DNA of 63,936 bases, filler included, from Atractiella rhizophila (taxonomy: Eukaryota), in NCBI GenBank assembly GCA_021432655.1. It is 3 parts of 3 records of this genome, joined end to end, with 100 filler letters (N's around TTAATTAATTAA, not from the genome) between each part and the next. Parts side by side here need not be neighbours in the genome. Positions count along the whole stretch, not along the records: positions 24,943 to 49,707 come from MU271785.1; 2 more parts are not named here. One strand, written 5' to 3'. Both the position numbers and the translations under genes were made by a program. Below the pieces are notes generated by a model. The model saw only the letters and a program-made list of their open reading frames with translations. It made no database searches and was not told where the DNA came from. Below, piece after piece: positions 22,840 to 54,250 of the stretch (the stretch's first letter is position 1; the number at the start of each line of letters is the position of its first letter).

Positions 22840-24842
22840 GCGAGAGGGTCGTCTGTTGCCGGGGAGTAGCTGACCACCTCTTAGGTTCCTACCAAGTTAA
22901 CCTAGGAGTTGCAGAAGGGGGAACGTGCGAAACGGGAGGTTAGGAGAATGGCCTTCTGCCGACCCTTCAGAGCGTCTAGGCGCTTTAAGAGAAAGAATTG
23001 GCGCGACAGTTCTCCCTGAACCTCACCCGTCGTCTAATGCAACTCTGGAGGCTGCCACAAAACACCTAACTTTTGTCCCTAACCTCGCCGTTGCTCCGTC
23101 TAAACGATCCTATGACACTACGTACAGGTGCGCCTCACCCCAAAACCAAGGGAGTCGAATTGCATCCGAAGTTTCCTGTCAAGTTGCAGGGTAAGTTGCA
23201 GCTGTAGAAGGAGCGCCTTAGAGAGCGGCAAGAAGTGCGAAATGCAAAGTCATATCGGTCTCCAGTAGCTTCCTAGCAGAACAAGTGTCTAAGTTACTTG
23301 AGTCAGCTAGAAAAGAGAAGCGTAAGAGGGGGCGAAAGCAATCGCTTCCAGAAGGCATTGCGTCACGAGGAGGACCGTGTTGTAGGACTCCAGCTGGAGT
23401 CTCACAACGTACAGGGTCCCCTCCTCTTAATGTAACGTCTACGGGAGAGTTCCTTGGCCCTCCTCCACCACGCTACAATGGAGGGATTGAACTAGTAATG
23501 TGGAAAACTTGGGGGGTGGCTTCTCAACTCCCCCCTCCTCTTCATTACCTAGAAAACCCGGAGAGCCACCCTTCCGTCGGAGTGGCTTTCCGGACCAGCG
23601 CGCTTNNNNNNNNNNNNNNNNNNNNNNNNNNNNNNNNNNNNNNNNNNNNNNNNNNNNNNNNNNNNNNNNNNNNNNNNNNNNNNNNNNNNNNNNNNNNNNN
23701 NNNNNNNNNNNNNNNNNNNNNNNNNNNNNNNNNNNNNNNNNNNNNNNNNNNNNNNNNNNNNNNNNNNNNNNNNNNNNNNNNNNNNNNNNNNNNNNNNNNN
23801 NNNNNNNNNNNNNNNNNNNNNNNNNNNNNNNNNNNNNNNNNNNNNNNNNNNNNNNNNNNNNNNNNNNNNNNNNNNNNNNNNNNNNNNNNNNNNNNNNNNN
23901 NNNNNNNNNNNNNNNNNNNNNNNNNNNNNNNNNNNNNNNNNNNNNNNNNNNNNNNNNNNNNNNNNNNNNNNNNNNNNNNNNNNNNNNNNNNNNNNNNNNN
24001 NNNNNNNNNNNNNNNNNNNNNNNNNNNNNNNNNNNNNNNNNNNNNNNNNNNNNNNNNNNNNNNNNNNNNNNNNNNNNNNNNNNNNNNNNNNNNNNNNNNN
24101 NNNNNNNNNNNNNNNNNNNNNNNNNNNNNNNNNNNNNNNNNNNNNNNAAAGTGCTGTTCGACTTCAACGACGACGTTGGTGGTTGCGAGCAGCTGGACGG
24201 AAGGAGGGATCCGATCGTGACCTCCTTTTGTAGCTGCGCAAGGGCCCCACGTCTTGTTAACAGTGCACCCAGCACTTTCAACAAAAACGACTTACGCAAA
24301 AGGAAACGCGGTTTGTCAGAATGCTCGCCGTCGAGCTCCTGATCGAAACTGCATTTCCTAAGCTGACCGTCAGCTATGACCAGGTCGACCTGGGGACTCT
24401 GCTTACCTAGCCCGGTAGGTAGCGTAGAGGGAGACGACTCCATGGACGCGAAGCGCCAGCAGTGGTGTTGTGAGCGAACGTCCCGGACGCAGCACGTACA
24501 ACTGGTGTAATCCTTGCATTAAACTCGAAATATGAAATTACGAAAAGCTGGCAGCAAAACAAGCAAAAAACTGGTAAAAACAGGTTTAAACTTAAAATTC
24601 ATTTATAACACCCGTTGTTCCCCGTCTGACCCGTCATGGAAGCACAAGAGGGTTGACGGACGGGTAGCACCCGTCCGTTTATACCGTCCGTCGTCAAAAA
24701 ATCAAAGTTGTGACGGTGACGGGACGCGTGGCCAAAAATGCCGTCCGTCCCGACCCCGTCACCCGTCTTGACAGTGCCGGTGCAAAGCCCTAGACCCGAG
24801 AGCAGGACCCTTTTGAGGCGTCCACTGGAACTCCTCCTCAAG

Positions 24843-24942
24843 NNNNNNNNNNNNNNNNNNNNNNNNNNNNNNNNNNNNNNNNNNNNTTAATTAATTAANN
24901 NNNNNNNNNNNNNNNNNNNNNNNNNNNNNNNNNNNNNNNNNN
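24843..24942. other. Artificial scaffold-joining spacer
   Basis: 100 nt of N with a central TTAATTAATTAA (stop in all six frames) at 24887-24898. Confidence 0.97.
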
Positions 24943-39536: not shown

Positions 39537-41024
39537 ATGCTCGCTCTACACTTTCTTTTCGTTATCACTCTCGCTATAGTTTCCGCCCATCCTTCAAGTG
39601 TGAAGGATAACTCGCCTGTCGTGCTCGAAGGGATTCCCCTCCTCAAATCCAACTATGCCGGAGTAGCGAATCTATTGGACTTCAGCCCTGTTTACGATCA
39701 CGGCTCATCATTTTCAAACGCGGCTATGGCTCCTAACGCTCCGCTCTCTGCGTCCAATTCAGAGAAGACTCCCGATCCCACCGAAATTCTTGGGACAGTC
39801 CTTGGTGCTGCAGGTAGCAGAACCTCTGTTCCCAGCTCTATCGTTGAGGTTCCTGTCGCCTCGAGGAGGAAAAATGTCGCTAGTGCGCCGTTTCTATTTC
39901 CTGCTGAGATTGAGGTCGAAGTGTCTGCAGAGAATACCAAACCTCATTCTTCACCTATGGTCCTCAAGAAGCGAGCATCCATCCCTCCCTCCTACTTCGA
40001 TGCTGGCGATGACATGGCTGAAACTTCTCAGCTGGAACCCATTCCTCTTTCTAGAATTCTTCATGCTGAAGAAGACAGTTATGATGCTTGGCTCGCTTTG
40101 GCGAGAGCTAGCAGGGCAAAGCATGGTTCATTTTTACTCTGATACCCTGCTGTGAAGATAGCTCTGACAGTTTTGGTGGTCCGGAACAGGCGATGCCCAT
40201 ATGAGAAATAGGAAACTTAACTACGCACGTTACGCTGAAGACGATGGCCACTACTATGATTCCAAACCTCGAATGCAAAGTGTGTCTTTGCTTCCCTGTG
40301 TCATGTGCTTAGTATTATTCTTAACACAATTCGGAGTACAGGCGCTAAGTTCCCCCCCGTTGAGTTTCCAATCCAACCAATAGCCCAACCTCCAATCCAG
40401 CCTCCAACCAAACATCCAGCCCGTTTACCTGTGCAATCGCTCAACCAATCGACCAGTTCGTCGGTTAATCCTCCGCAAAACAGTCCTCACCCTCCAGTTG
40501 ATCTGCCGGACGAGGAAGATGGAATGGTCAAACCTCGAGCCCACGAAACTTCTTTCGAAGAAGACGAGTCCTTATACAACACATATCGACTTCCATCCTT
40601 CTATATGAGTGAGGAAAGCGACAGCGTCTCTAGTGCCCTTGTTGCTCCGTCTGTGGCTGTTCTCCGTCAACGATTTGCGGATATGTTTTCTGACACACTC
40701 AAAGAGGGAGAAGACCTCTCAGATGGTGCTGATGACACTGAATCGTTCAACAGCGTTGAGAGAGCCCCTGCTAGCGGACTTGCGTTTGAAGCGAAGAGGG
40801 AGAGTAAGGTTGGGAGACATCTGGAGGGTTGGAAAATGTTCGACTTCTTTCTGCGGATTTTAGGCTCGTCCTCGTGGGTTATGGACAAAGCAAATGGAGA
40901 CGGGACGAGGACGGAGAATCAAACCAGCATTCTTGGAAACGTGGGGTGCGAAGCGTGCGATGAGCATGTTGAGAGCAGCAGGGATGCTGGAGAGATGGCA
41001 CAGAGGCGTTGGAGACTGTTTTAG
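39537..41024 (+). CDS. Putative secreted protein of unknown function (2 introns)
   Basis: Signal-peptide-like MLALHFLFVITLAIVSA|HP and a KKR dibasic site. The exons join in frame through short GT-AG introns. Confidence 0.6.
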
Positions 41025-41215
41025 AAAATTTGTGAGTTCTCAGTCTTTCCCGTCTAAGGTGACAGATGATGCTCTCGCACAGCCCGATAGCAGGATATTG
41101 GCGATGGTAATTGTTGTGGTTTCAGATTGTGATTCCAAGTGCCTGCGAGCTTCGATGTCTTTTATTCAACTGGTGAATACATTCTCTTCTCTTGCTTGAT
41201 CTGATCCTCCGTCAT

Positions 41216-41266
41216 GACATGCTCCTTTCCACGACATGCTCCTTTCCACGATATGCTCCTTTCAAC
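41216..41266. repeat. 17-bp minisatellite, three copies
   Basis: GACATGCTCCTTTCCAC twice plus GATATGCTCCTTTCAAC, lying between convergent 3' ends. Confidence 0.9.
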
Positions 41267-41305
41267 TCATCGTTCTAAAATGGTTTGTGCGAGCGCTGCA
41301 CAGAG

Positions 41306-44300
41306 TTATGCCACGTACTGCGGTTCAAACTAGAGTCAAGGTTATTGCAAAAGGGTTTGACTGACTCACAGCGAACTTCTCAGTTTCTCCATCAATCTTC
41401 TTCAAGATTTCCTTCTCCTCCAATCGTCTGATGACAATGTTGATATCCTTCACAGCAGGGCTGAATTGGGCGTGAAGAGCAGTGATCGTATCCTGGCCCA
41501 GAACAATGTTTACTTAATTCTCTTTGTACCATGGGACCCACCGCCACTAAGCTTTGTCGAGTTAGCTGTTTAGCACATTTCATGACCCTAAAGGGAACAT
41601 AGGAATGAATGAAATGAAGGAGTGAAATGAAGGACCGACGAACCGAACAACCGCCGCTTCGATGGCTACGAGTCGATTTTTATTGACTTGGATCATGACT
41701 GCTGATATTCCATCTTTATCCTTATCCGCATTGAGGCGGTGAAGTGGGATTCGGACCTTTTTACTGGCAAATTCTAAGCTTTAATCAATTCCCGTTGTCA
41801 AGTTCAAGGTGAAAGATCTCACGCAGGTTCAAATGATATTCCTCATTTTCGAACAATAAGAGATGTTGCTTAACTAGTCCATTAAGAAGTCGCTTCACAG
41901 TCTTCTCTGTTAATCCAACCTCTTCCGCTATTGTAACAAGATTCGCACTTGATTTGTCTTCAGCGAAGAGAAGGAGGATCGCAGTTTGGGGAATCGATGC
42001 TTGGATCGTGTATTTGACGGTCGTATATCGTGTTTGCAGCTCTACAGTGGAGAGATGGAGTACGTGTGTCACCTTCCGTCCCCTGCGCAACAGTGAGGTT
42101 CATACCAAGCGGGGGAACAAACGCACCGCTGCTCCCGAGCGAAAAACTGATTGAACTCGTCATGTAATGGTTCTAGAGCTTTTGGAAGTATCATGCCGTC
42201 ACACTCGGAGCGTGGGAAAGTCGACGCAGAAGAGGATAGTACTATGGCGTTAAAATCTGTGATATTATTCTTAAACCATAGATTTCTTCCAACACAAGAA
42301 CGAGACAAACTGATGCTAGACTGTCTCTCTTGGTTAAATTGGTCCAGCAGGGTTTTTGAACAGCCAATATCTATCTACGAATCAACTTCGATCGATTGTC
42401 ATACCAGAAGGTACGAACCTGCAAGCATTCGGATGATCTTTTGTTTATAACTTGATTCTGCCCCCGAGAAAAGCCCAGCAATTTCTGTTTCCTTGTCCTC
42501 ATCGATGCATTCAAATTTTGCTATTCGCCGAGCAAGTCGTCGAGCGTGTAGCTCGAGGAAGGCATCCTTCTGTTGAAGGAAAGAGTATATGCGCAGCTGG
42601 ATGTGCTTTAGCTCTCTGTGACGCCGGAGATATCTAAAAGACCCAACCGCATGCTTGATATTGTCATTAAGAGAACCCTGCAATGGGTCCCCTGGTTTCC
42701 TCAAAACTTCGTCAATGTATGCCGAAACCAAGTTCGCCGCATTTTCCTTCGTGTTTACGAGATCTGTGGAGGCCTGTGTGGAGTCAACTGGGGCTTACTT
42801 CAAAGGAGAATGGACACCTTATCTGTAACTTGGTCAAAGAAAGGTCCTTCGCCTAGCGCTTTCACCTGCAAGACAATGAAATTTAGGGCGGCAATCGTGT
42901 GGTCAACAAATGCGGCTGGGGTGAGAGCCTCTTCAGTATCTGCCTCCTGATCCGTCCCACCGATGTCTTCAACGTTCTGCCTTAGGAGTTTCCCAGCCAT
43001 CTCCATGACGATCCATTGTGCGACTAAGTTCAGAACTGCTTCACATTCTTGAGATTCCGGTGCGAGCTTGGCGAGATATAGGATGTGTTTGACGTCTATC
43101 ATGGGCCATCAGCACTTCTAGTACCATGCAAGCTTTCACATGATATGCAGACCTTCTTCACCTTCCTTTCCAGCCTTAAGTGACTGCGGCAGCCTGTCTA
43201 TGGCGCTTAATCGCAAGATTTTTATGGCACACAACATAACCAACTGTGCTGCCTGTGAGCGGGGATCCCTCGGGTACGAATGGAAGTGATAACCTCATTT
43301 TTCAGGCTCATTATTCTCTCCTTCCATTCTCCCATTGCATCCTCATCCGTAAACAAGGTATCGATTCTCTTGAGACGTGATTCTGCTGCTTCTGGTGGAA
43401 TGGATCGTTCATACTCGAGGATGGGAGAGGCTAGGAGTGCGTCGTAAAAATTAGTGCTTGTGGGAGCGTCCACGTCAACTATTTGACTGTCAACACAATT
43501 TCGGCGGAGGAAAATAAAACAGACGGCATAGAGTTGCACAGCGCGTGAGAAGGGTACCGTTTTGATCCGTTCTCTTCTTTCTCTTCCAACTGGGCGGAAG
43601 GTATGGAAGATCATGCAAGTGGCTCTTCTCACGCTCCTCCGGATCATCTCCCACCTCCTTCCGATAGCATCTCAGAATGGAGCTCCTGATCCCGTTTCCA
43701 GTATTTTGCTGAAGCGCATCGGAGAAAAGAGCGACTTTGACGATATGCTTCACCTGCTCTTTGTCAGGCTCACTTAGCCTTGCATTGTTGTGGTAAACTT
43801 CGACCATCCCCCGCCTCGTAGGATCGGACCTGAGCCACTCCTCGAACGTGGGATGGGAATTGGGATATCGATATGCGGTGTCAGCCACCGAATAATCAAG
43901 GAGTCCAACAGCCATCTGAAGGCCAGAAAGGACTTCGCGAGTCCTCTGCTCCCATAGTGGAAGAAACACTTCAAGGGGCAAACCCAAGAATTCAGTAGAA
44001 AGTTCCTTCAATCGGCTATCGAAAATTGGGAAGACAATACGAAAGAGAGCAAAACGGCACTGGTACGAAGTGTCGAGATACCGTTCGACTGTCCTTACAC
44101 CAATTCCGTGTGAGTCAGTGGAGGCATAACCTGGAAAGAGCAATGGCTCACTTTCTAAAACGAAGCCTTTCAGCTGAATTCAAGCTGTACAATGGATCGC
44201 AAACTAGCTTCTTCATGACATGTTTTATGTGAGAGAGTCTTCTTTTGTTTATGCTTGGACGGTGCGGGTTGATCCAGTCCCCAAGCCAAAAGCGGCGATG

Positions 44301-44633
44301 TTCTGGAATGCAGAGGACGACCTGTGGAATCAGGATCGTCCATTCTACAATGACGAAGGGTATGCATGCGAACCAGAAGACTAAGCGGGCTAGTCCTGGT
44401 CTTCAGACATCCTTCAGCAATATTAGAAACATAAAGGCAATGACACACATAACAGTTGAGACGCTGACGATGAACACGACGCAGAATAAGACAAAGAAAG
44501 ATAACCCAATAATTCCACCGGTGTCAAATTCTCTCTTTGTTGGTTCCTCTTCTTTGGCATCTTGTGCGAACGCGAAATACGGTAGACAGAGGCAGAGAAG
44601 AAGAGAGAATGACTTGAGGTGAAAACATATCAT
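41306..44633 (-). CDS. Divergent cullin (Cul1-like) with a predicted N-terminal signal peptide and transmembrane extension
   Basis: Cullin homology KDAFLELHARRLARRI...QKIIRMLADI...RKVTHVLHLSTVEL...QTAILLLF, neddylation domain RLVAIEAAVVRVMKCAK, and C-terminus EKEILKK...FAYVA*. The cullin body is well supported; inclusion of the 5' exon (44633-44449) is inferred from a 48-nt intron. Confidence 0.8.
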
Positions 44634-46183
44634 GTTAGATGAACACAACAACTATAACAGGAAGTGGCGATCCCAGATTGTTGACAAGTCTGGGTCACTG
44701 TTGGTGATAGACTTATATTGCTTCTCCCTCGACTTTAGAAAGGTTATTGTCGTTCAACACGTTCTTGCGACCCACCCCCGCACTGAGACCCACACTCCAC
44801 TGGTCCAAAGCAAAATGAGGTGTTTAATGGACAAATGTAACCAAAGATTGAAGGAAAGGCACAATGATGTGACAGTCTGATAAGTGAGAAAGGCACAACA
44901 ATGTCATCTCATTTCTATCTAGGATGACAGTGAGGGATAACTTCAACATCTCATTTGCTACAGAAGAATGCACCAGGGTTAGACGCTTCTGTTCGCCCCT
45001 TGCCAAAAGGACTTAGGCATCACATCCGACTAAGGCTCCTCGCTGTTATCAGGTGATACAATCACGAAGTGAGGATGACGCCGACTCCGTGACTCTATTC
45101 TCCCTTCAAAGTCCTTCATTCAAGTTCCCAGAGGAAAAGCGAGGCATTGTGGCTCAGCAGGCTCAGCAGCTGGCAAACAAACGTTCTGACCCTCTCGCAA
45201 TTCGCAGCTTCATTTCTCCTTGCACCAGAGGCCTGGCTCTCTTCTCGTAAGGTCCTACCGGTTGTCTCCTCCGCAGACAGGTTGCTGAATCAACGAACGG
45301 AACGGTACCTAGCACCAGCACGTGAGATCCCAGCGGAAACTCACTCAGAGTCCCAGACTTCCCCAATCATGAATACATTGGGAACGTTCTGCTCATAAAG
45401 AGACGAGATTGATTCGGATTTACAGTACCTTGTCTCTTCTGAGGCCGTCCATAAACGAGCAGCCGCGCTTTTGCCATCACTGTGGCCGAAATGAAGAGTC
45501 TTCTTTTCTGTAGCTTGTCCCGACCCTGAGGACATTAAATCTACAATTCAAGCAGGATCCAGGTTTGTTTATTGCACTGATGCACGGTTCTCTGCCTTCC
45601 TCTCCAATTTCCATTTTGAAGGTTCTAATCATGGCGTTCTATAATGTCATAGCAAAGATCACAGTTCATCTTGGAACTTTGAGAACAGTCCTACAGCGAT
45701 TGTCTGCTGCATATGTTCTAGGTCTGAAGCCAATGCTTATGCTTCATGACTTTCAAGATCAAGGTTTCTGTATTCCTCCTTCCTACATTATCGAATTTTA
45801 TGAACTCATTAGCTTTTGCGAATTTTATGATCCCATGAGCTTTTGCGATTCCACTATAGCATCTAGAGGTGAGAAAGCTGCAACTGCAAGGGAACCAACA
45901 ACCAGACTGACGGGAGGTTGAGAAACTCGATAGTTCCAGAACACTCCTGTCTCAGTCAGGTTCCCACGATGAAACAGTGATGGTGGGACGATGTGCCAGA
46001 ATCTGCCGACGTGACGTTCAAGCACTTCAACTTCCCTTTTTAGAGCTTATCAAACCACCACATTCCTTTTCTCCTTCCTATAACTTTCCAAACAACTTGA
46101 ATATTCAATCGATATTCAACGTTCAACAAGAGGGACATCGTTCAGTAATCAACATTCCTCTTCTTTCTCGATCTATTAACATC

Positions 46184-46948
46184 ATGATGCTTCTCCTCCA
46201 CTTATTCATTGCCATCATCGCTGTGGCGTCTGCTCTTCCCACCAGCGATGAAACCAACGTTCTAGTAGCCAGAAATGACGGCGTCTGGCATGGTAGGGGG
46301 ATCGTTCGCGGAACTCATTACGACAAACCGACCCCTCAACCAACTGTTCACCCACATACGAGCTCAACAGCTGGCCGTCCATCTCCTACCGGACGTCGTC
46401 ACGTCCATGAAGAGGGAACTAGCATCGAGCGGCGTTCCATCCCCGAGCCTGCCGGCGTTGACTTAGGAAATGGTCTCAATGGAGATGCAGTCGGTGTCTT
46501 GGACTCTGTCGGGACGAAGATATATGGTGCGTTCCCTCCCCGTTCCTCCATAGTCCATACTCAAGCTCCTATCCCACCAGGTCACTCCTACACAGCCCTT
46601 CTAAACGATTTCCTCGACCGCCTTTCCGGTGGACAGGCTAACTCTGCCGAGTCTCACCACGAGACCCCTAACGTCCAACACCGAGACGCCTCATCCACCG
46701 TAGTCTCTCGTCTCCAGAAACGCGCAACGGCCATCCTGAAAATCGTTCACGCGAAGGCGTCCTCCTTATCTCCACACTATCAGCCTAAAAGGGCAGTTTG
46801 CGATAACTGTGGCGCTCACTCCACGGGAGAAGACGACGAGTCTTTGGCTGAGGACAAAGAGGTGGAGGATGGTCTTTCCGGAGATGGAGTGGATCAGCAC
46901 GACCACAAAGGAAATAGCGAGTGGATGGGTGCTCAGCGTTCGTGGTAG
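46184..46948 (+). CDS. Putative secreted protein with several Kex2-like dibasic sites
   Basis: MMLLLHLFIAIIAVASA|LP signal peptide, with RR/KR sites (ERRSIP, QKRAT, PKRAVCDNCGAH). Confidence 0.65.
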   Translation: MMLLLHLFIAIIAVASALPTSDETNVLVARNDGVWHGRGIVRGTHYDKPTPQPTVHPHTSSTAGRPSPTGRRHVHEEGTSIERRSIPEPAGVDLGNGLNGDAVGVLDSVGTKIYGAFPPRSSIVHTQAPIPPGHSYTALLNDFLDRLSGGQANSAESHHETPNVQHRDASSTVVSRLQKRATAILKIVHAKASSLSPHYQPKRAVCDNCGAHSTGEDDESLAEDKEVEDGLSGDGVDQHDHKGNSEWMGAQRSW

Positions 46949-47180: not shown

Positions 47181-49707
47181 TCATGCTCTCTCCTTCATTT
47201 CCTTCAGCCTCTCCCTCCATTTTTCAACATCCACAAGCTTCCTCTCCAAATCCCTCTTCTCCTCTTCCAAAGCCAATCTCCTCTCAGGGTCTTCAAGCTC
47301 TCCAAATGAGTACCCGCCCTGTCCGTCAAACTGTTCCCATACCGCACACATTTAACTGGACTGTATGCGAAACAGCATGAAAAGCGGCGCACCTGAAGGA
47401 TATATTTGTGATACTTCCACAAACTAGGACGATGTGACACGGTCAAAAGTGTGATTCCAAGTTCTGCACCATATTCGACGATCAGCACCACCGGAGCGAG
47501 AGCTCTGTGAACGAAACACAGCGCACCAGTAGCATGTTCATACATGACCCTCTCGATCTCCAGAGTGACCGCACTGGTGCTCTCATCCAAGATGGCATAC
47601 TTCGGACGATGGTAGAACAACCGCCCGACGGCCAGACGCTGCTTGTCACCTCCCGAAAGGGCATCCCTCCATTCCTTCTTCGCGTCCCAGCCTCCTTCCT
47701 GAGTCAGGATATGGTGGACCTCCAACTTCTTCAACAGTTCCTCCAGATCCGAATCCTTTACTCCTCCTATCCATGCGCCGCAAAGACGCGCAGAATAAAA
47801 TATCAGAATCAGCAGCAGCCCCAAACGCGTGACGAATACAAGGGAGGATACGCACGAGCAATCATCTCCTCCTTCGTATCGGGGTAGATTAACTGGTCCC
47901 TCAATGTCCCAACGCAGAGATAAGGACGTTGAGGAATATACGTGAACTCTCTCGCCGGGGGCTTCGTGACCTTCCCTCCATACACCGGCCACAACCCACC
48001 CAAAATCCTAAACAAGGATGATTTCCCGGATCCGTTCGGTCTATCCCATCCATCCACCAACAAAACAAAGCGAGTCAAGCAGTCAGAAACGGCAGAGCCA
48101 AAGGAAGGGAGGGAGGGGAACGCACCCGACGACGAGCAGGTGGTTTCCTGGTTTGACGTGGAACGAGAGTTTGGGTATGAGGACGTCCCCGTTTGGAGAG
48201 ACGATGGGGACTTGGTCGAAGATGATGTCTTCTTCCGACTCCACGATCTCTCCTCGTCCGCTCAACACTGGTCCATCCGATACCAAAGCGCATTAGCGCA
48301 CAGGCAGACGGTAGAGGGAAGGCAATGCTACGCACCTTTTTGGTGTCCTTCGACGCCGACTTCGGCTCCAGACACCAGTTTCTTCTCGAATTTGCCCTTC
48401 GAAATGTCCTCCATGGTCTCCAACAGGCTCGACACGCGCAGAGTGTATCCCGCGAGTTCGGCCAACTGTAACCACGAACCAAACAAGCAAGATTCAAAGC
48501 TCTCGTTAACGTAGTGATCTGTGAAGTGGAAAGAAAGTACGCGCCTCTTTGTAGCTATACATGACCCTCCCAAACGCGTCGCTGGCACTCAACAACAGTC
48601 TCCTATTCGTCACGAAGCCTAGACACCATCCCATCTTTCGTTAGCTCTCCTTTGTTCATCCAAAATGCAAACGTCCACCCTGTCTCAGAAACGGAAAGCT
48701 GAGAAAAAAGACGCACTCTCCGTCCTCCCACCGAAATCCATCGCTCCTCCTCCACCTCCAGAATTGAAGAAAACGGGAACGGCGCAGATACAAAGTCCAA
48801 GCGATCCCCAGAACCACTTTATGATTCCGTCTTCGACCTTTGTCCACAATTCTCCGTTCAGAATTCTCGCGATGGGATGCAATGATGGGAAGGGACGCAC
48901 CATGCCATGAAGCAATCTCATGCGATAGATCCGGTTGACGTGCTTGACTAAACTGTAGTAAGCTCTTTCGACGATATTTTTCTCAACCTCGTGTCCCCTA
49001 TACAACGCGACCTATCCATCCAATCATCAATCAATCAGCCATTCCTCCTGCTAATATGTACATCTACACAAAAAGAGGAAGAGAGCTCACCTCCTCCGCG
49101 TTCTCAATCAACCGCGTATGCGTGAACCTGAACTCGCCTTCTAATGCTTGTTCTTCGGCTGCGTAGCGCCCGAATGCGGGTGTTAGGAGGCGCAAGAGGA
49201 TGGCGGAGAGTTGGATGATGGAGGATAGGCCTATGAGTGCTTCTGCGCCGACGGAGCGGGAGAGTTGGTAATTGTAGAGTATGACATCCAAGATTGGTTT
49301 TGCAATGTTTCCACTTCACACATTGTCAATGAAGATGAACGATAAGGAAAGGAAGAGAGAGACATACTAAATCAGAGCGAGAGAGTTGGAGAACAAAGCC
49401 ACATCAGCAGTGACAAGTTGATCGGCATTCTTGATCCTATCATCCAAATTCCCCAACGCATAAAACGTCATTCCCCTCAAATAAGTCTCCCCAACCTCCC
49501 TCGTCAACGTCCTCCTATACTCCGTCGCCAACCTGCTCTGCAAGTATTCAATCATCGAATTACAAAACACGGCGGGGATGGCGACGGCCATCCAGGTGGC
49601 GATCCTGCGAGCGAAGATGGCGGGCTGACGACGGACGAGGGCGGAGACGATTCGGCCGTCGAGGTGGGCGACGAGGACGGAGAGGAGGGAGCGGAGGAGG
49701 AGGAAGG
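47181..49707 (-). CDS. Peroxisomal ABCD half-transporter (Pxa2-like), 5' end cut by the scaffold edge
   Basis: [28 protein letters not shown], Walker [10 protein letters not shown], signature LSGGDKQRL, Walker [23 protein letters not shown]. Confidence 0.92.
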
Positions 49708-49807
49708 NNNNNNNNNNNNNNNNNNNNNNNNNNNNNNNNNNNNNNNNNNNNTTAATTAATTAANNNNNNNNNNNNNNNNNNNNNNNNNNNNNNNNNNNNN
49801 NNNNNNN
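49708..49807. other. Artificial scaffold-joining spacer
   Basis: 100 nt of N with TTAATTAATTAA at 49752-49763. Confidence 0.97.
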
Positions 49808-53389: not shown

Positions 53390-54250
53390 NNNNNNNNNNN
53401 NNNNNNNNNNNNNNNNNNNNNNNNNNNNNNNNNNNNNNNNNNNNNNNNNNNNNNNNNNNNNNNNNNNNNNNNNNNNNNNNNNNNNNNNNNNNNNNNNNNN
53501 NNNNNNNNNNNNNNNNNNNNNNNNNNNNNNNNNNNNNNNNNNNNNNNNNNNNNNNNNNNNNNNNNNNNNNNNNNNNNNNNNNNNNNNNNNNNNNNNNNNN
53601 NNNNNNNNNNNNNNNNNNNNNNNNNNNNNNNNNNNNNNNNNNNNNNNNNNNNNNNNNNNNNNNNNNNNNNNNNNNNNNNNNNNNNNNNNNNNNNNNNNNN
53701 NNNNNNNNNNNNNNNNNNNNNNNNNNNNNNNNNNNNNNNNNNNNNNNNNNNNNNNNNNNNNNNNNNNNNNNNNNNNNNNNNNNNNNNNNNNNNNNNNNNN
53801 NNNNNNNNNNNNNNNNNNNNNNNNNNNNNNNNNNNNNNNNNNNNNNNNNNNNNNNNNNNNNNNNNNNNNNNNNNNNNNNNNNNNNNNNNNNNNNNNNNNN
53901 NNNNNNNNNNNNNNNNNNNNNNNNNNNNNNNNNNNNNNNNNNNNNNNNNNNNNNNNNNNNNNNNNNNNNNNNNNNNNNNNNNNNNNNNNNNNNNNNNNNN
54001 NNNNNNNNNNNNNNNNNNNNNNNNNNNNNNNNNNNNNNNNNNNNNNNNNNNNNNNNNNNNNNNNNNNNNNNNNNNNNNNNNNNNNNNNNNNNNNNNNNNN
54101 NNNNNNNNNNNNNNNNNNNNNNNNNNNNNNNNNNNNNNNNNNNNNNNNNNNNNNNNNNNNNNNNNNNNNNNNNNNNNNNNNNNNNNNNNNNNNNNNNNNN
54201 NNNNNNNNNNNNNNNNNNNNNNNNNNNNNNNNNNNNNNNNNNNNNNNNNN

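Follow-up and report, generated by a model that had tools for sequence, protein, structure and literature searches.

An 873-residue protein that carries a hydrophobic N-terminal module ahead of a cullin is encoded in 15 exons on the minus strand (ATG at 44633 to TAA at 41308–41306) of a 63,936-nucleotide (nt) stretch of DNA from the root-endophytic fungus Atractiella rhizophila (Pucciniomycotina, Atractiellomycetes). This stretch, taken whole and with its filler letters, is referred to here as the window, and all coordinates count along it. We favour, with moderate confidence, the interpretation that one gene fuses a 123-residue membrane-targeting module to a diverged Cul1-type cullin, and that the resulting cullin-RING scaffold is anchored in a membrane with its body in the cytosol. 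The extension is not a one-off artefact of a gene model, but part of a small, fast-diverging family that is confined to this one species. If the interpretation is true, it would reveal a new design for a multi-subunit ubiquitin ligase that resides in a membrane, in which the substrate-recruiting end of the scaffold is set beside the bilayer.

Gene structure and transcript evidence

The gene model contains 14 introns, of which the first is 48 nt and the 13 others are 44–58 nt, with variable donors; the length of intron 1 is thus typical of the cullin gene; an earlier, sequence-only reading of this DNA had called it typical of the genome. Translation of 44451–44633 on the minus strand gives the signal-peptide/transmembrane (TM) peptide that the same reading had assigned to exon 1 (44633–44449). 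By translation and hydropathy, a signal-peptide-like N-terminus occupies codons 1–23 (44565–44633) and is followed by an acidic stub (codons 24–40, 44514–44564) and a first hydrophobic segment, TM1 (codons 41–62, 44449–44513), whose last codon is completed in exon 2. Beyond intron 1 (44401–44448, GTGTGT...CTGAAG), exon 2 encodes a second hydrophobic stretch identified by hydropathy, TM2 (codons 68–93, 44307–44384), and a basic linker (codons 94–126, 44208–44306) that includes Met124 (ATG 44216–44214). Intron 2 (44094–44151, 58 nt, GTGAGC...GTAAG) then leads from exon 2 into the cullin N-terminal domain, as seen in X13 record 10 and X14 record 11. Between 44651 and 44148 the frame meets a single in-frame stop, the TGA at 44405, which lies inside intron 1. 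We estimate the chance of such an open frame at ~3e-4 for 167 random codons, which makes it unlikely for non-coding DNA. Sequence alone was nevertheless rejected as evidence for intron 1, as dozens of alternative GT..AG pairs also bridge the stop in frame.

Fifteen public runs hold parts of the stretch, and four of these (X13, X14, X1 and X3) were aligned to 41000–45200 at ≥88% likeness. The runs consist of assembled contigs, which show presence and joints, whereas transcript starts, ends and expression levels are beyond their reach. The contigs derive from RNA, because intron-sized GT..AG intervals are missing from them. Across the four runs, every one of the 14 introns has at least one contig from which it is spliced out; introns 42774–42817 and 43244–43293 (the latter with a fuzzy alignment) are removed in X14 only, and the others in two to four runs. 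The most extensive path is that of X13 record 10 (1167 nt), which follows 44647–44478, 20 divergent letters, 44400–44151 and then 44092–43525, so that a single contig spans from exon 1 through exon 2 into the cullin N-terminal domain. X3 record 16, from a root metatranscriptome, stops at 44400 with a loose end similar to the final part of exon 1. X1 record 6 covers 44752–44449 with 1 mismatch in 304 letters and carries 45 further letters. We infer the latter to be 44400–44356 from the observed binned depths of 0.72 and 2.40, which are at odds with the near acceptor 44412; this joint is deduced from the depth tables and is absent from the printed joints (4 joints not shown).

All three contigs that reach the exon 1/exon 2 junction (X1 by depth arithmetic) accordingly use 44448–44401, and the 48-nt intron keeps the frame into the second hydrophobic stretch as had been proposed. 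By the same arithmetic, no contig of the four runs covers 44401–44448. Neither intron retention nor the near acceptor 44412 is seen in the contigs of the four runs, a form of evidence that drops rare variants, so that a minor isoform may exist. The sequence-only reading had named use of the nearer acceptor, a separate cullin mRNA starting at MKKLVCDP (about 44216) and an untranscribed locus as the outcomes that would overturn it. None of these outcomes appeared: the contigs show the far acceptor 44401, one contig that joins exon 1 to the cullin, and transcripts of the locus in four runs. The coordinates given in that reading were all confirmed, and the architecture that it proposed is supported by transcripts and by the paralogs described below. 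In one diverged relative the end of exon 1 is 9 nt shorter than in the window, and in another it is 3 nt longer; read by hand, both changes preserve the frame. Upstream, the observed 5′ leader (44634–44752) is reached by X1 record 6, holds no ATG and has an in-frame stop upstream of the start; the ATG at 44633 is the first ATG met on this leader and has an A at −3. No contig of the four runs covers 44753–45200.

Transcript depth is low in three of the four runs. In X14, summed depth leaps to 149.9 and 54.2 at 43256–43537, compared with ~28 elsewhere, with loose ends at 43364 and 43405; a short, abundant, unrelated X14 contig has ~40 nt in common with exon 4. For intron 4, either 43253 or 43244 may serve as acceptor, a difference of three residues, and 43244 was chosen in agreement with X14 and the deposited protein.

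The 873-residue model corrects the deposited gene model. The latter, KAH8915206.1 (P0004), is a 673-residue hypothetical protein to which the exon 3 translation is 100% identical over the overlapping 69% of its length; an identical protein, KAH8918188.1, is recorded on another contig and may be a haplotig or duplicate. The deposited model begins at an internal Met (residue 205 of the 873-residue model) and lacks exons 1 and 2. It is also mis-spliced near exon 9, where it omits 42311–42370 and reads through the intron at 42257–42310; over this region, RNA contigs and paralogs back the 873-residue model. No second copy of the cullin gene was found within the window.

The cullin body and its paralog family

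Pfam places the body of the protein among the cullins. PF00888 (Cullin) matches P0004 with E 6.1e-39 (134.7 bits vs. a cutoff of 33.2) over model positions 259–603 of 620, with separate exon translations also matching, and PF10557 (Cullin_Nedd8) is matched with E 9.8e-13 (48.4 bits vs. a cutoff of 36.9); the matches are confined to the C-terminal half. The cullin homology domain is encoded by exons 7–11 (41774–42773), as delimited by PF00888, per-exon matches and contig joints; it is flanked by introns 42774–42817 and 41774–41822 and interrupted by introns 42597–42647, 42371–42418, 42257–42310 and 42083–42126. Exons 12–15 (41306–41773, with introns 41588–41643, 41493–41541 and 41318–41369) encode the Cullin_Nedd8/winged-helix B (WH-B) domain, recognized from PF10557, the alignment to human Cul1 and conserved columns, and end the protein with a cullin-type C-terminus. 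The motif VVRVMK in this region aligns to IVRIMK of human Cul1; the neddylation lysine is Lys817 (41578–41580), and the block R..A.VVR.MK is intact in all five family members that have a C-terminal domain. Of 61 columns that are each ≥85% conserved among 97 canonical cullins, 59 are aligned in the window protein and 34 of these are kept.

The N-terminal domain is far more diverged. Exons 3–6 (42818–44093, ~residues 145–519, with introns 43479–43524, 43244–43293 and 43096–43152 placed by contigs and frame) encode a helical domain without a Pfam match, and its alignment to Cul1 is too weak to judge single residues of the Skp1 surface. The fold was approached through the paralog P0005 (735 residues), which stands in for the window protein. 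By sequence, its best match in the PDB is human Cul1 (E 5e-37), over residues 349–735 only, a range that takes in the neddylation motif and the C-terminal residues. Its AlphaFold2 (AF2) model, whose input alignment contained canonical cullins, has a predicted local distance difference test (pLDDT) score of 90 and a predicted template modelling (pTM) score of 0.80. In Foldseek this model matches full-length Cul1 and Cul2 chains over 742–795 columns (best E 1e-24, to Cul1; TM-scores 0.50–0.57), so that the diverged N-terminal half is a cullin-repeat stalk. As P0005 begins at MKKLV, which corresponds to Met124, the window protein comprises a complete cullin plus the 123-residue extension. Sequence and model together identify the body as a full-length, strongly diverged Cul1-type cullin, which agrees with the earlier reading of a full-length but diverged Cul1-like body with its neddylation lysine.

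The gene belongs to a family of paralogs. An exhaustive phmmer search with P0005 against 1.84 billion representatives returned four close matches (E 8e-217 to 3.5e-65), followed by a gap to generic cullins (E 2.5e-39, ~30% identity, C-terminal domain only). Like P0004 and P0005, all close matches are A. rhizophila proteins, while the next-best matches come from scattered eukaryotes. Judged by these searches, the family forms a clade that is confined to A. rhizophila and comprises at least six loci, the paralogs being KAH8925995.1, KAH8923642.1, KAH8923648.1, KAH8914560.1 and KAH8920299.1. P0005 is 48% identical to the exon 3 translation, and relatives are transcribed in root metatranscriptomes. 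P0006 (KAH8923642.1) and P0008 (KAH8923648.1) share one 95,033-bp contig and their accession numbers differ by six, which suggests local duplication within the family.

The sequence-only reading had proposed a search for paralogs with the same N-terminus, and part of the family shares features of it. P0007 (776 residues) has a signal-peptide-like N-terminus, then a brief charged stub and one TM segment; its similarity to the region of codons 41–62 is weak but position-matched (9/29 identical, E 0.009), and it has a Leu where the others have the Met of MKKL. P0009, a partial model of 298 residues, opens inside a hydrophobic stretch homologous to that of exon 2 (28/70 identical, E 3e-18), the homology beginning 49 residues upstream of the MKKL Met. 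The models of P0005 and P0006 (705 residues) instead start at MKKL without a TM segment; they may be truncated, like the deposited model of the window gene. Searching longer proteins with exon 2 (P0002) gave 27 candidates, none at E ≤ 0.01, and a scan of metagenome contigs with the same query gave 75 pattern matches, none of which was a relative by tblastn. A hydrophobic N-terminal 19-mer (mean Kyte–Doolittle hydropathy (KD) ≥ 1.8) occurs in 3 of 161 cullin-like sequences, namely P0007, P0009 and P0104. The last of these (614 residues, outside the family) has a hydrophobic segment of 25 residues at its start and an acidic run after it. Because much of its N-terminal domain is missing and its gene model may be at fault, it was set aside as a second example, although it could also be an independent case.

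Predicted topology and alternative readings

The hydropathy and charge of the N-terminal module fit a signal peptide, a TM segment of about 20 residues and a basic flank, with the second stretch leaving the topology ambiguous. Residues 1–23 contain one Lys, a 16-residue hydrophobic core (KD mean 1.97) and A-F-A before Gln24, a pattern to be read against the von Heijne −3/−1 rule for signal-peptide cleavage. The stub (residues 24–40) has a net charge of −3 and is predicted to be lumenal or extracellular. TM1 (residues 41–62) has 22 residues with a KD mean of 2.77, and a loop of five residues (63–67, net charge +1) separates it from TM2 (residues 68–93; 26 residues, KD mean 2.21), which holds an internal Glu, a Gln and two Pro. 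The 19-residue KD maxima of the two segments are 2.81 and 2.28, compared with the usual threshold of 1.6. The linker (residues 94–126) has a net charge of +7, with 9 Lys/Arg among 33 residues. Under the positive-inside rule, a basic flank stays cytosolic. The basic flank, the polar residues within TM2 and the single-TM model of P0007 lead us to predict a cytosolic body and a TM2 that does not fully span the membrane; the presence of only one N-glycosylation sequon in 873 residues (Asn323) lends the cytosolic placement weak support. An AF2 model of P0009, built to ask whether the hydrophobic stretch packs onto the cullin repeat, has low confidence, with a mean pLDDT of 58.8 and residues 1–36 below 50.

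A mechanism may be proposed on this basis. The signal peptide and TM1 would insert the protein co-translationally into the membrane of the endoplasmic reticulum or another compartment of the secretory pathway. The signal peptide looks cleavable and the stub would face outward, while the basic linker and the cullin body would face the cytosol, with TM2 re-entrant or lying at the interface. Through its C-terminal domain, the cullin would recruit a RING protein of the Rbx1 type and be neddylated at Lys817. Its diverged N-terminal repeats would lie near the membrane and recruit an adaptor or substrate, giving a membrane-tethered cullin-RING ligase.

Several observations weigh against this interpretation. 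Assembled contigs are blind to an internal transcription start and to rare isoforms, and two paralog models, as noted above, lack the extension. All five family members have other residues in place of the Trp-Pro that opens the alpha/beta domain, although all 97 canonical cullins carry the Trp, and binding of Rbx1 is uncertain because the family has lost such near-universal residues. If both segments behind the signal peptide span the membrane, the cullin would end up in the lumen rather than the cytosol. Finally, of 36 classified differences to relatives, 21 are non-synonymous, 13 synonymous and 2 intronic, which suggests relaxed or diversifying evolution; the sample is partial and mixed, being drawn from several relatives, with 36 of 40 printed differences classified (the 4 dropped lie in the 3′ untranslated region (UTR)) and 122 more unprinted.

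The first of these points bears on the possibility that a soluble cullin starting at Met124 (MKKLV...) is the relevant product, with an internal promoter or a minor transcript as its source and the upstream frame serving as a translated leader or giving a minor isoform. We regard this as unlikely, while an additional internal transcription start may provide a soluble isoform. A product starting at Met124 would agree with the homologous MKKL starts of P0005 and P0006, with a cullin of this length matching Cul1 end to end, and with the invisibility of transcript starts in contigs. The three junction contigs are nonetheless all spliced in frame, and contig ends between exon 1 and Met124 were counted as falling at the splice site only, though one X14 contig, short of exon 1, ends at 44369. 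The MKKL ATG (44216) is preceded by six ATGs in the spliced mRNA, so that leaky scanning to it is unlikely. P0007 has no Met at this position and the homology of P0009 runs 49 residues further upstream, which gives independent support for a coding extension, and the P0005 and P0006 models may themselves be truncated.

A lower probability is given to a hairpin in which both hydrophobic segments span the membrane, leaving the cullin body lumenal or extracellular and unable to act as a conventional Nedd8/Rbx1 ligase. The signal peptide, the hydropathy of the two segments and a loop of only five residues would permit this arrangement. However, the flank after the second segment is far more basic than the loop (+7 vs. 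+1), TM2 contains polar residues and prolines, and its P0009 counterpart holds Glu, Arg and His. The P0007 model has one TM segment only after its signal peptide; moreover, sequons are nearly absent, and a retained neddylation motif would be pointless outside the cytosol or nucleus.

Similarly improbable, in our estimate, is that the gene stems from a recent lineage-specific duplication and, though transcribed, is drifting neutrally or decaying in function, its extension an accidental exonisation without a selected function. The restriction of the family to one species among the 1.84 billion representatives searched, the loss of many conserved cullin residues, the 21:13 ratio of non-synonymous to synonymous changes and the low transcript depth in most runs are all in keeping with decay. 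Opposed to it are the intact frame of 873 codons over 15 exons, the in-frame nature of the exon 1 changes in both relatives, an extension common to paralogs that are only ~40–50% identical, and the conservation of the neddylation block and cullin C-terminus in all members. An exported form of the hairpin, with the cullin in the secretory lumen or at the cell surface of this root endophyte acting, for instance, as a decoy or binding platform at the fungus–plant interface instead of a Nedd8-dependent ligase, and the family diversifying under conflict, we consider very unlikely.

Genomic neighbourhood and comparison with known systems

Among 33 neighbouring open reading frame fragments compared with Pfam, no adaptor-like neighbour (F-box, BTB or Skp1) was found, the only matches being to ABC transporters. 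ABC_tran (E 5.7e-06) and ABC_membrane_2 (E 3.8e-11) are matched in fragments at 47207–49011 on the minus strand that likely belong to an ABCD-type (peroxisomal) half-transporter gene, which lies upstream of the cullin gene at a distance of two genes. Open frames of 135 and 345 residues, without a Pfam match, lie at 45514–46945 on the plus strand; as they and the cullin gene point away from each other, the interval 44753–45500 is probably a shared promoter region. In the 3′ UTR, a 17-nt tandem repeat of 2.8 copies is present at 41216–41263 (minus strand), and X14 and X3 contigs lack exactly 17 letters at 41222, so that the copy number of the repeat varies among relatives. Runs of N at 23606–24147, 24843–24942, 49708–49807 and 53390–54250, given as 1579 bases in total, were read as scaffold gaps.

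With Cul1/Cdc53, the scaffold of the SCF (Skp1–cullin–F-box) ligases, the window protein shares the cullin homology and WH-B/Cullin_Nedd8 domains, the VRxMK lysine and the C-terminal residues, and from Met124 on it has the length of a normal cullin. Cul1, in contrast, is not known to have a counterpart of the 123-residue extension with its signal peptide and hydrophobic segments, and the N-terminal repeats of the window protein have no detectable sequence similarity to those of Cul1, the Trp-Pro being lost as well. To our knowledge, every cullin described so far is a soluble scaffold whose access to membranes depends solely on partner proteins; full-text phrase searches for a transmembrane, membrane-anchored, -tethered or -bound cullin, with subscription literature lying outside their scope, returned no paper, nor did a broader word search list one on this subject, judged by titles and abstracts. 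Whereas canonical cullins are soluble and are not known to have a signal peptide or TM segment, the window protein has three hydrophobic segments within residues 1–93. Membrane RING E3 ligases such as Hrd1, Doa10/MARCH6 and members of the RNF family carry their own TM segments and keep the catalytic part in the cytosol. These are, however, single-polypeptide RING ligases without a sequence relationship to the window protein, which would be the anchored scaffold of a multi-subunit ligase. Some cullin-RING ligases are recruited to membranes by membrane-bound receptors or adaptors, their cullin being soluble; the end result would be the same, but the window gene encodes its putative anchor in the frame of the cullin itself.

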